From an uncultured archaeon (GTDB lineage Archaea > Asgardarchaeota > Jordiarchaeia > Jordiarchaeales > Jordiarchaeaceae): a stretch of 20,486 nt of DNA. The DNA is taken from contig CAZECW010000168.1 in assembly GCA_964510585.1 (NCBI GenBank), forward strand, positions 1 through 20,486. Reading direction: 5' to 3'. The translations under genes were made by a program, and so were the position numbers. This document shows positions 1,335-10,880 of the stretch, in pieces. Below the pieces are notes generated by a model. That model saw only the letters and a program-made list of their open reading frames with translations. It did no database searches and had not been told where the DNA came from. Position 1 is the stretch's first letter. Each line of letters opens with the position of its first letter.

Positions 1335-2681
1335 TTAAAAACCCTTTTGCTTCTGAACATATTCTGAAACCCTATGAGCTGCAGTAGCCCCTTGGCTGAC
1401 CGCAACTACTAGAAGCTGCAAATCGGTTGTCACATCGCCCACAGCATAAACACCTTCGATATTAGTCCTTTGATCCCTATCAACCTTTATAAATCCCCTC
1501 TCATCAATCTCAACACCCAGCTTACGGTAAATTTCCGTGTTAGGGGTCATACCCACTGCAAGAACCACCATATCCACCACCAGTTCAAAATCCTCATCTT
1601 CATCCAAGTCATGCAAAACTACCTTCTCCACAGTATCGGTTCCCTCGATTTTCACCAGCTCCGTCTTTGACAAAAGCTTAATCCTATCTGACCGCTTAAC
1701 CGCCTTAACGTTCTTGTCAAAACCCACAAGATCCTTCTCCTTATAGGCAAAGGTAATCTTATCCGCAATATTCTCCAAAGCCAAAGCTGACTCTAAAGCT
1801 TGCTCTCCATTACCATAAACCAGCACCCGCTTACCCATAAACTTCTCGGGATAAGACACATAATAGTAAACGCCCTTATCGCCCTTAGTGAAATCAGCTT
1901 CGCCAGGAATACCACAAGCTAGAGGGAGAGTGCCCGTAGCAATAATCACCGCTCTTGCGCGATACTCACCCATAGAAGTCTTAACCACCTTCTCTGGAGA
2001 GACCTCATTCACAAACTCGTTTTTCATCTCTACACCCAATTCATGTGCCTGCTTCAACAGATTAGTAACAAAATCTCTGCCCAAGGTGTTGTCAGGCAAC
2101 CCCGGAAAATTGAGAATCTTCTTGTTGGGATAAATTGTTGATAAAACGCCACCCCAAGATTTACCCTCAAAAACCGCCACACTCAAACCCCTAGCAGCGG
2201 TCTGAATAGCTGCAGTAAGCCCAGCAGGCCCACCTCCAACAACAATCACATCATAATCAAAAGCACCCTCAACCCTCGCCTGAACACCAACCTCGCCTTT
2301 TTCCTTACGGGACAAATAATCCTTGATAGCAGCATGCAAAGCATCAGCAGCCAAATTACTACAATGCATCTTAATAGGGGGCAAACCCTCCAACTCATCC
2401 GCCACATCTTTGCGAGTAATCTTCAAAGCCTCCTCCAAAGTTAAACCCTTAGCCATCTCAGTAATAATACTACTAGTAGCAATAGCCGAACCGCAACCAT
2501 AAGTTTTGAACTTTATATCCTCAAGACGCCCATCTTTTGAAACTTTTATAGTCATTTTCATCATGTCACCGCATAGGGGATTCCCCACTGTTCCTTCTCC
2601 GTCTGGGTTTTCTATTTCTCCGACATTTTTTGGATTTTTGAAGTGTTCTTTTACCTTTTCACTATATTGTGTAGGTTTCAA
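1335..2681 (-). CDS. iscU: Fusion of an IscU/NifU-N Fe-S scaffold (aa 1-~125) and a TrxB-fold, YumC-type ferredoxin:NAD(P)+ reductase-like flavoprotein (aa ~141-448)
   Basis: IscU motifs GNPLCGDMM (C37/D39), YGCGSAIA (C63) and KMHCSNLA (H106/C107). FAD motifs VIVVGGGPAG, GGVLSTIYPNKKILNFPG, VIIATG and TNIEGVYAVGDV. No CxxC. TTG start 8 nt after GGAGG. Confidence 0.9.
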   Translation of the reverse strand: MKPTQYSEKVKEHFKNPKNVGEIENPDGEGTVGNPLCGDMMKMTIKVSKDGRLEDIKFKTYGCGSAIATSSIITEMAKGLTLEEALKITRKDVADELEGLPPIKMHCSNLAADALHAAIKDYLSRKEKGEVGVQARVEGAFDYDVIVVGGGPAGLTAAIQTAARGLSVAVFEGKSWGGVLSTIYPNKKILNFPGLPDNTLGRDFVTNLLKQAHELGVEMKNEFVNEVSPEKVVKTSMGEYRARAVIIATGTLPLACGIPGEADFTKGDKGVYYYVSYPEKFMGKRVLVYGNGEQALESALALENIADKITFAYKEKDLVGFDKNVKAVKRSDRIKLLSKTELVKIEGTDTVEKVVLHDLDEDEDFELVVDMVVLAVGMTPNTEIYRKLGVEIDERGFIKVDRDQRTNIEGVYAVGDVTTDLQLLVVAVSQGATAAHRVSEYVQKQKGF

Positions 2682-5747: not shown

Positions 5748-6986
5748 TTATTGTTCCTCTTTGGGTGTTAGGGGAGAGAGTTTTCTGAGTCTCTCTATTA
5801 CTTGTGGCAGGGCTTCGAGTAAGTAGTCCACGTCTTCTTCGCTGTTGTATTTGCCCAATGTGAGTTCCAGTGAGCCGTGTGCTTCTTCTTTTAGCAGCCC
5901 CGTGGCTATAAGTACATGTGAGGGCTCAAGTCTTTTTGCGGCGCAAGCAGAGCCAGTTGATACAGCTATTCCCCTCATGTTTAGACCTAGTAATATTGCT
6001 TCTCCCTCAACATAGTCGAATCTGAAATGAGCATTGTTTGGTAGTCTCAGAGTAGGGTGCCCGTTAAGATAGGAATGGTCAATAGTATCCAGCACAGTGC
6101 TTATGATTCTGTCTCTCATCTTTTGTATTCTAGCACTGTCACCATCCATCTCTTTTTTGGCTATCTCCGCTGCTTTTCCCATACCTACAATGCCTGGCAC
6201 GTTCTCGGTTCCAGATCTTAGACCTCTCTCTTGTCCTCCTCCCTGTATTATGGGCTCTATCATAGTTCCAGATTTTATGTAAAGTGCTCCCACTCCCCGT
6301 GGACCATAGATGTCATTTGAGGATAGTGTTAGCAAGTCTATTCCGTCTTTTTGCACATCTATGGGTATCTGTCCCTCAGCTGCTACGGCGTCCACATGGA
6401 GGAGCACATTATGGTCGTGAGCTATTTTCGATATTTCTTTTATGGGTTCTATGGTTCCTATCTCGTTGTTAGCATAGTTTATTGATATGAGTAGAGTTTC
6501 GGGCTTAATTTGTCTCTCCAACTTATCGAGGTTCACTAATCCATACTTGTCAACGCCAACACTACTCGTTTTGAACCCAAATTTTTCAAGATATTTAGCT
6601 ATGTTTATGATGGATATATGCTCTATAGCGGATATTATTAAGTGGTTTCCTTTGTTCTGATTTCTAAAGCATACCCCTTTTAAGGCTAGATTGTTGGATT
6701 CTGTTGCACCTGAAGTGAAGACAATTTCTTTGGGATCCTTGGCGCCTATAAGGTCAGCAACCTTTTTTCGAGCATCCTCCACGGCTTCAACTGGTAAGTC
6801 ACCAAGAAGATGTAAAGAAGAGGGATTACCAAAAATTTCCCTATGGTAGGGATTCATTGCCTCCAGCACTCTAGAATCCACCGGTTTACCAGAAACATAA
6901 TCCATGTAGACAAGACGAAAACGCCCCTCCTGTTTCAGCGAACCCAGATCAGGTACTTCACAAAAATCATCTTTTCCTTTCAACAA
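5748..6986 (-). CDS. iscS: IscS/NifS class-I family protein of the Archaeoglobus type (PLP Lys replaced by Asp; probably not an active cysteine desulfurase)
   Basis: GNPSSLH, IVFTSGATESNNLALKG, SAIEHISI, ANNEIGTIEP, HVDAV, GGGQERGLRSGTENVPGIVG and STGSAC(348) are present. Canonical S.HK.YGPKG reads SSNDIYGPRG. Confidence 0.9.
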   Translation of the reverse strand: MLKGKDDFCEVPDLGSLKQEGRFRLVYMDYVSGKPVDSRVLEAMNPYHREIFGNPSSLHLLGDLPVEAVEDARKKVADLIGAKDPKEIVFTSGATESNNLALKGVCFRNQNKGNHLIISAIEHISIINIAKYLEKFGFKTSSVGVDKYGLVNLDKLERQIKPETLLISINYANNEIGTIEPIKEISKIAHDHNVLLHVDAVAAEGQIPIDVQKDGIDLLTLSSNDIYGPRGVGALYIKSGTMIEPIIQGGGQERGLRSGTENVPGIVGMGKAAEIAKKEMDGDSARIQKMRDRIISTVLDTIDHSYLNGHPTLRLPNNAHFRFDYVEGEAILLGLNMRGIAVSTGSACAAKRLEPSHVLIATGLLKEEAHGSLELTLGKYNSEEDVDYLLEALPQVIERLRKLSPLTPKEEQ

Positions 6987-7339
6987 TTAACACCTTCAAA
7001 AACTTTTATTCTGTGCATGCGTCAGCTTTACCCAGCATACAGACCCCATTCACATCAACTATTAAGCCTTTTTCTTCCCCTTAAAGAGTACTAGGATTAT
7101 GAGTACGCCGAGAGCTTACGCATAACAGTTTTAATTCACTAGCTCCTTTAAAAAATGGAAGAATTTCCAATTTTTATCTTTTTTTATTTTTCTGCCTCTC
7201 CAAACATATTTTACATTCTTCAAGAAATAATGTTTATTCAAACATAGTGAAAAACATTTGTTAAATTTTTAATTAAACAACCTACCCACAGATTTTATTC
7301 ACTATTACTTTTTCCAACACTGGCTATTAGATATTCAAT

Positions 7340-7606
7340 TTATTTTAGCTTTTTCACCAGAAAGCGAAGTGTTCTTCCACTCTTTTCTAATTTTAAAATT
7401 TGGTTTCCGGTTCTTTTAGCCCATCGAGTTATGTCTTCCTCTGCAGCTGGATCGTCAGCCAGAATCTCCAAGACCTGGCCAACTTCTAGCTTTTCGATCT
7501 CTTCTTTAGTTCGGAATATGGGCTCTGGACAGTAGAGTCCAATTGCGTCTAATGTACGGTCTGCCTTAACCTCCTCTTGGCCCTTCTTTTCTTTGGAGCT
7601 CGACAT
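7340..7606 (-). CDS. tusA: TusA/SirA-family sulfur-carrier protein
   Basis: LDAIGLYCPEPIFRT (CPxP motif) and GQVLEILADDPAAEEDITRWAKRTG. ATG 10 nt after GGAGG. Confidence 0.9.
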   Translation of the reverse strand: MSSSKEKKGQEEVKADRTLDAIGLYCPEPIFRTKEEIEKLEVGQVLEILADDPAAEEDITRWAKRTGNQILKLEKSGRTLRFLVKKLK

Positions 7607-9863: not shown

Positions 9864-10880
9864 TTAAGCTATGCTTAGGTGCGCTTCTCTCCAAATTCTG
9901 TACTTTTCAGGAAAGCCCAAATCCGAAACTATTTTGGTGGCCTTGAACCTGTTAGCTATACTCTTAACCGTTTCAAAATCACTCTCATTAACCAGAGTCC
10001 AGTACTTGAAGGAAACCTTCCTTCTACGAGCAGTTATGTTGTCAATGAACCTCATTTTCTCAATCTCAATATTATACTCCTGCGAACCGGGACTAGGCAA
10101 GATAGGAGACCACGGATTAATGTTAACCAGCAAATGTCCAGATATTCCAGACAACGCCTCCACGTCCTGTCCAAGCTGTCTGAAGGCACCCTTCTCGTAG
10201 CCCACCTCAGGATCAATATCAACACCAATCAAGAAATCTAATCCTTCCTTCTTCTTAGCTACACTATAGATTCCCGAAAGGGCATTGTACATTTTTTCAG
10301 CTCTCCAGTCCAACCACTTGGAGAAGAGTTGATCATTATCCCTCAGTCCGTCCCATGTAAACGACTCATCTATCCCCGCCGCTGCTGAGAACTCCTTTTT
10401 ACAACTATCACAGAAGCAAAACTCCTGCCTCACAAAGGTATTACCCAAAAGTATGATGCCGGCGATAGGAAACCGAATCACTTCCTCAACAACACTTTTG
10501 AGATAAGCCCAGAAAGGCTCCCTAGCAGGGCAGACATAATGCTCATTAGCCACGCCATTAGCATTGTATGTCTTATAGGAGGGGTCCACACCATAGTAAT
10601 TGTCTACAAAGGTGTAAATAACCGCATAAAGCTTAATCCCTGCAGCCTCAGTAATCTTCGCAACCGTTGAAAAAAAGTCACCATACTTCTCATGTATAGG
10701 AGCCACATTACTCTCATACAAAGCAAAACCAGAATCATGCTTTGCAACCGCGGCAATCTGCTTCATATATCCCCCAAAAGTTGCAAGAAATGAATCAGCG
10801 CTTTCCTCTTTCATAGTGTCAGGACTCATTATAGGCAGAACATTCCGAATAAGTAAATTACGAACTTGCTCCATAGTCAA
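9864..10880 (-). CDS. GHL10/DUF4015-like glycoside-hydrolase-like TIM barrel with Cys cluster, apparently lacking catalytic acids
   Basis: GFALYES.VAP, GIKLYA, YVCPARE..W.YL..VVEEV, FCFCDSCKKEF, W.DWR and GQD match the family pattern. The usual DG(I/V)xxD reads AGIILLG. Confidence 0.6.
   Translation of the reverse strand: MTMEQVRNLLIRNVLPIMSPDTMKEESADSFLATFGGYMKQIAAVAKHDSGFALYESNVAPIHEKYGDFFSTVAKITEAAGIKLYAVIYTFVDNYYGVDPSYKTYNANGVANEHYVCPAREPFWAYLKSVVEEVIRFPIAGIILLGNTFVRQEFCFCDSCKKEFSAAAGIDESFTWDGLRDNDQLFSKWLDWRAEKMYNALSGIYSVAKKKEGLDFLIGVDIDPEVGYEKGAFRQLGQDVEALSGISGHLLVNINPWSPILPSPGSQEYNIEIEKMRFIDNITARRRKVSFKYWTLVNESDFETVKSIANRFKATKIVSDLGFPEKYRIWREAHLSIA

Follow-up and report, generated by a model that had tools for sequence, protein, structure and literature searches.

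Introduction

In PMC7585200, the IscS of Archaeoglobus fulgidus is described as having no desulfurase activity, with an Asp replacing the essential Lys, and as providing a Cys that ligates the [2Fe-2S] cluster on IscU; the role assigned to it there is that of a ligand, not of a sulfur provider. The same structure is described in PMC13066941. Methanosarcina acetivorans IscS1 likewise lacks the essential Lys (PMC7585200). In work cited in PMC13066941, the IscS of Escherichia coli binds IscU and the sulfur carrier TusA at competing sites. The lysine-less IscS type is already known from structure and biochemistry, and the question of how the crystallised, inactive pair of IscS and IscU from A. fulgidus obtains its sulfur dates back to 2012. 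In the literature searched, we found no description of a link between lysine-less IscS and either TusA or DsrE.

Here, we analysed a window of 20,486 nucleotides, the whole stretch being taken from contig CAZECW010000168.1 (assembly GCA_964510585.1) of an uncultured archaeon of the Jordarchaeia. One of its genes encodes a protein whose best solved matches are the A. fulgidus IscS2 structures (4eb5/4eb7/4hvk; E 6e-142, 476 bits, residues 26-406). The printed alignment shows an identical SSNDIYGP motif and the same Ala in place of Gln in A. fulgidus IscS2, of which 4r5f is an engineered Lys variant.

Results

The gene occupies 5748..6986 of the minus strand, stop codon included, and encodes a lysine-less IscS/MisS-type protein of 412 aa, an assignment that draws on Pfam Aminotran_5, on 4eb5 and on the dN/dS values given below. 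Aminotran_5 matches the ORF at E 6.7e-77 over profile positions 1-371, indicating a full-length class-V aminotransferase, and more than 20 IscS/NFS1 structures match it at E <1e-79, which places it in the group I (IscS/NifS-type) family. Residues are numbered from a TTG at 6986, which is preceded by an SD-like GAAGGTG. This numbering, adopted in the first-pass annotation, is reasonable: because three orthologues carry Ile or Leu where the query has Met28, translation probably includes the 27 preceding residues, which would make up an N-terminal extension of about 27 aa specific to the lineage.

The motifs that the first-pass annotation had read in this protein were all located by script. SSNDIYGP falls at residues 222-229, where Asn224 (AAT, 6315-6317) and Asp225 (GAC, 6312-6314) stand at 6312..6317 of the minus strand in place of the PLP-holding His-Lys pair. 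DAVQ reads DAVA at residues 199-202 (6381-6392), with Ala202 (6381..6383, minus) replacing Gln, and the N-terminal motif is DYVSGKPVD (residues 29-37; 6876..6902, minus), in which Gly-Lys takes the place of the Thr-Thr conserved in the Lys type. The mobile-loop cysteine of STGSAC (residues 343-348), which in 4eb5 is the cluster ligand, is retained as Cys348 (TGC, 5943..5945, minus), and Cys occupies this column in 150 of 152 rows. Column comparison revealed one further loss, absent from that annotation: Glu374 (GAA, 5865..5867, minus) replaces an Arg that is kept in 99% of Lys-type relatives. In IscS, the Gln at column 202 contacts PLP and the Arg at column 374 binds the substrate carboxylate. 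The hallmarks of an active cysteine desulfurase (EC 2.8.1.7), namely the Lys of S-x-H-K, the carboxylate-binding Arg and the PLP-contacting Gln, are thus all replaced, and the plain name 'cysteine desulfurase', which relatives carry in their annotations, is as doubtful as had been suspected.

For the comparison, we used the 120 best homologues from a collection of 5.8 billion proteins and, as a Lys-type reference, 135 proteins among the 150 nearest representatives of 50%-identity clusters. SSND[I/L/M]YGP is present in 120/120 of the best homologues, whose Asp-type columns read D in 100%, N in 100% and A in 99% (121 rows in one count), against K 100%, H 89%, Q 96%, T 88%, T 94% and R 99% in the Lys type (n=135). 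At seven columns where conservation in the Lys type reaches at least 88%, the Asp type has a different residue. These are column 33 (Thr to Gly), column 34 (Thr to Met or Lys, with Lys in the query), column 174 (Asn to Gly, with Asn kept in the query), column 202 (Gln to Ala), column 224 (His to Asn), column 225 (Lys to Asp) and column 374 (Arg to Val, Leu or Glu, with Glu in the query). Given these frequencies, the Asp/Asn/Ala pattern is a fixed clade signature and not the product of chance or of a read error.

Against two Freyarchaeum-type orthologues, the gene has a dN/dS of 0.077-0.084 (Nei-Gojobori, with dS near saturation), from which it follows that the lysine-less gene is functional and that its substitutions are fixed; the active-site replacements are fixed under strong purifying selection. 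The same results refute the notion, to which we assign practically no probability, that the Asp codon arose through faulty sequencing or assembly or that the gene is a decaying pseudogene. Such a notion could appeal to the fragmentation of the assembly into 217 contigs and to the coincidence of the gene with contig breaks in some sister assemblies, but the ORF is intact, Asp is found in all 120-121 homologues, dN/dS is about 0.08, and an orthologue in a closed genome of 3.58 Mb carries the same motif.

The Asp-type iscS falls exactly into contig breaks in three of five same-genus assemblies (G028, G064 and G082) in which the flanks are assembled; strain variation or a repeat may be responsible. 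We rejected the idea that the gene is absent from G028 and G064, where contig breaks lie at the locus and there is no real absence.

The fate of the pocket bears on a further alternative, in which PLP or PMP is bound non-covalently and supports a different or slower reaction, such as external-aldimine desulfuration or transamination. Of the PLP-contacting residues, His123, Asp199 and the phosphate-binding TSGATES loop are still present, so that non-covalent cofactor binding is possible, and the strict invariance of Asn-Asp, which shows no drift, suggests that the pocket may keep some role. Against this, four residues of the canonical chemistry have been replaced together, the substrate-binding Arg among them, and the A. 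fulgidus homologue is reported as inactive (PMC7585200). We give this alternative little credence.

The nearest proteins come from a Candidatus Jordarchaeaceae archaeon (90%) and from Freyarchaeum deiterrae (88%), both Asgard archaea of the Jordarchaeia. In a FastTree phylogeny of 96 sequences, the query lies in an all-lysine-less group of 17 (14 Asp, 1 Ser, 1 Ala and 1 Pro; support 99), and a quick IQ-TREE run from which the three trait columns had been removed recovered an all-lysine-less group of 25 (SH-aLRT 85). In the latter tree, the proteins from Jordarchaeia group with proteins from Thor- and Promethearchaeota (support 99). The A. fulgidus sequence, which shares 58-60% identity with the query and has the cassette, is absent from both trees. 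The first-pass assignment to the A. fulgidus IscS type agrees with the best PDB match (4eb5), the shared motifs and the position within an all-lysine-less group, and the properties it had given for that type, no desulfurase activity and a Cys ligand to the IscU cluster, are those reported in PMC7585200.

In the IQ-TREE phylogeny, a second, separate lysine-less group (support 96) carries Gln, Gly, Arg, Ser, Asn or Thr where Lys would stand, so Lys has been lost more than once in the family. Its members include P0141, P0156, P0172, P0179, P0225, P0247 and P0262, together with locus L099. A Desulfatiglans locus with the motif ASNPFYGP has IscU upstream, and TusA is absent from it.

Two Actinomycetota proteins nest inside the Asgard lysine-less clade (IQ-TREE, support 99), and Actinomycetota MAGs (L023, L029 and L081) carry the full TusA-DsrE-IscS(Asp)-IscU cassette. 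This nesting suggests inter-domain transfer or, alternatively, mis-binning.

Upstream of iscS on the minus strand, tusA (7340..7606) encodes an 88-aa TusA sulfur carrier (Pfam TusA, E 6.4e-26) with Cys26 in a CPEP motif (codon 7529-7531). The two genes are separated by an AT-rich spacer of 353 nt (6987..7339, minus) that holds no ORF and has stops in all frames. Many lineages have a dsrE-like gene in this place, and the length of the spacer is close to that of their dsrE. Searches by tblastn for a DsrE remnant in 6987-7339 and downstream of iscS returned nothing above chance, and an Rfam scan of the whole window, spacer included, gave no match. A scan for bacterial-type promoters and terminators performed no better than on shuffled sequences. 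DsrE-family genes do occur elsewhere in the present genome, on contigs C121, C94 and C96. On C121 (genome G000; L101 and L108), a second tusA is followed by three tandem DsrE-family genes resembling TusBCD/DsrEFH, which form a separate sulfur-relay cluster.

On the other side of iscS, 3 kb downstream, lies an IscU domain fused to a thioredoxin-reductase-like flavoprotein (1335..2681, minus; NifU_N 4.4e-48, Pyr_redox_2 1.2e-45). All cluster ligands of the IscU part are intact and the flavoprotein part lacks CxxC. This is the only IscU domain within the window, and the fusion is probably the partner scaffold of the lysine-less IscS. Fusion and IscS are separated by genes for a membrane protein and a HAD phosphatase. 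The corresponding region of the closed Freyarchaeum genome reads tusA, iscS, a 136-aa ORF and the IscU fusion, the last of which starts 736 bp past the IscS stop. The fused IscU domain averages 73% identity to the IscUs of Asp-type loci, a value that is confounded by taxonomy and weakly informative. Most other Asgard cassettes differ in having an IscU with only a piece of about 130 residues of the flavoprotein domain.

The IscU-flavoprotein fusion was found in all five same-genus genomes searched, and its orthologue in one sister genome (G056:C208:1459-2802, L199) is reported to contain one in-frame TAG. Elsewhere in the window, a 338-aa ORF at 9864-10880 on the minus strand has no Pfam match; a 334-aa gene, also without a Pfam match, occupies a comparable position in two relatives.

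Across a mixed sample of species-representative genomes and metagenomes, TusA is encoded upstream in 18/18 Asp-type loci and, within 5 kb, in 0/62 Lys-type loci. IscU follows downstream in 17 of these 18 Asp-type loci, the eighteenth stopping at a contig edge; in the Jordarchaeial loci of the sample, it lies downstream yet not directly adjacent. In many Asp-type loci, tusA and iscS also flank a DsrE-family gene of 120 aa (Pfam DsrE, down to 1.3e-19).

The same arrangement was found in a sample of 151 Asgard genomes. All of the 30 best-scoring loci, which come from 30 different genomes, encode Asn-Asp save one with Asn-Glu; TusA is present in 27/30 and DsrE in 17/30, so that DsrE is missing from about 40% of the Asgard cassettes. 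Of the three loci that lack TusA, two are situated at a contig end. Second-copy loci in the Asgard genomes are of the Lys type in 19/19 cases, with TusA or DsrE within 2.5 kb in 0/19. Where both types could be read in the same genome (n=15), TusA accompanies the Asp-type locus in 15/15 and the Lys-type locus in 0/15. A lysine-less Asgard locus of the Ser variant has both TusA and DsrE. TusA linkage is a specific feature of lysine-less IscS: among the Lys-type loci sampled, about 80 in total, none has TusA as a neighbour.

In the phylum Halobacteriota, a DNA motif pattern for the Asp type matched 43 of 301 sampled genomes, against four hits for a reversed control pattern, and every Asp-type locus there with enough upstream sequence has TusA and/or DsrE. 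With 43/301 Halobacteriota genomes by DNA motif and the 30 best loci among 151 Asgard genomes, the clade is broad, and to judge from these sequences 'cysteine desulfurase' would be the wrong product name for all of it.

A genome that we take to be A. fulgidus (G326), as one of its copies has 382 residues like PDB 4eb5 and agrees with it at the N-terminus save for one residue, contains two Asp-type copies. Copy 1 lies in a TusA-DsrE-IscS-IscU arrangement. Beside copy 2, which is the crystallised IscS2, lies a truncated DsrE of 94 aa and no TusA; TusA is therefore not needed in cis. The two A. fulgidus loci (L197 and L198) are a segmental duplication in which IscU and the following 112-aa protein are nearly identical.

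The first-pass annotation had named a carrier protein as one possible source of the sulfur, and the near-universal adjacency of TusA or DsrE lends backing to this suggestion. We weighed it against the view that the lysine-less protein is solely a structural partner and cluster ligand, with free sulfide supplied by an anoxic habitat, while TusA and DsrE, placed nearby for reasons of regulation, serve another pathway such as molybdopterin synthesis or tRNA thiolation. The description of the A. fulgidus protein as a ligand in PMC7585200 fits such a view, as do published abstracts according to which sulfide can feed Fe-S assembly in minimal systems, the lack of an adjoining TusA at the crystallised A. 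fulgidus copy, and the 353 nt that set tusA apart in the present window. The TusA/DsrE link, however, spans Asgard archaea, Bathyarchaeia, the phylum Halobacteriota and Actinomycetota, and none of the Lys-type loci sampled shows it, not even those of paralogues within the same genomes. This breadth and this absence are hard to explain without a shared function, and we consider the ligand-only explanation unlikely.

The present genome also encodes a Lys-type IscS, on contig C28, followed directly by a plain IscU. It is 54% identical to the query and of the same length class, but differs from it in having SGHKIYGP, DAVQ, the Thr-Thr motif and the Arg all present and no TusA nearby, and it groups with Lys-type proteins in both trees. 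The Asp-type protein is consequently an addition to, and not a substitute for, the normal pair, and the genome contains two parallel IscS/IscU systems of different design.

We rejected the possibility that genomes with the Asp type lack any true desulfurase. Where the Asp type is the sole IscS-like gene, a SufS-type desulfurase with intact Lys and RSGxHC was found in 5/5 genomes checked, and in two of these five its gene lies directly downstream of the Asp-type iscS. Cysteine could on this account remain the ultimate sulfur source: cysteine-derived sulfur delivered via carriers is possible, as is sulfide. In the closed Asgard genomes G012 (L139/L144) and G023 (L140/L145), a SufS-type gene with intact HK and RSGxHC adjoins the Asp-type IscS; IscU was not found within 1.5 kb downstream in either.

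Discussion

The canonical PLP active site of the protein has been dismantled, while intact cysteines are found in its mobile loop and in TusA, and IscU keeps its ligands. We think it probable that the protein belongs to a lysine-less, MisS-like clade that operates without PLP desulfuration, as a platform for IscU on which Cys348 obtains sulfur from TusA or acts as a cluster ligand. Lysine-less IscS would be unable to generate a persulfide from cysteine by PLP chemistry, and may instead form a dimeric platform for IscU, here an IscU-flavoreductase fusion. TusA persulfide would then pass its sulfane sulfur to Cys348, by way of both TusA and DsrE in other lineages, and Cys348 would hand sulfur to IscU, provide the nascent [2Fe-2S] cluster with its fourth ligand, or do both. 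Electrons for reducing persulfide sulfur to sulfide may come from the fused reductase. Two features of the locus speak against this reading: tusA lies 353 nt from iscS and may be transcribed separately, and two unrelated genes lie in the 3 kb that separate IscU from iscS.

More tentatively, and with considerable doubt, the clade might be seen as far from dead, being a persulfide-relay hub for Fe-S assembly in which TusA, with or without DsrE, loads Cys348, the flavoreductase provides electrons and the Asn-Asp pocket has acquired a new role, such as binding iron or gating the Cys loop. Were this true, the Jordarchaeia would possess a self-contained three-protein machine that runs in parallel to a normal IscS-IscU pair.

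For the A. fulgidus type more widely, the TusA/DsrE linkage offers a concrete and testable answer regarding the sulfur source, and it is backed by the paralogue controls inside the same genomes and by A. fulgidus itself.

Comparison with known systems

The locus shares with E. coli the three protein families IscS, TusA and IscU. In E. coli, however, TusA receives its sulfur from IscS, which is an active PLP enzyme, whereas the persulfide-making chemistry is missing here, and for that reason any transfer would have to run in the direction from TusA to IscS. With M. acetivorans IscS1 and the archaeal minimal system MIS (MisS/MisU), the likeness is that of an archaeal two-component system of IscS and an IscU-like protein. 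MIS as described has no carrier proteins (PMC13066941), whereas TusA is a conserved neighbour here.

The closest described relative is A. fulgidus IscS2 (AF0564), with which the protein has in common its fold, its length, SSNDIYGP, Ala for Gln, an altered N-terminal motif, the loss of the conserved Arg and the retention of the loop Cys. The A. fulgidus genomic copy is 58% identical to the query by tblastn, and copy 1 resembles the present locus further in having TusA upstream, in its case together with DsrE. Several differences set the Jordarchaeial locus apart. Its IscU lies 3 kb off and is fused to a full thioredoxin-reductase-like flavoprotein, its cassette is without a DsrE gene, its IscS has the 27-aa N-terminal extension, and the lost Arg is Glu here and Leu in A. 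fulgidus. Finally, a normal Lys-type IscS is also encoded in the present genome, whereas both A. fulgidus copies are of the Asp type.
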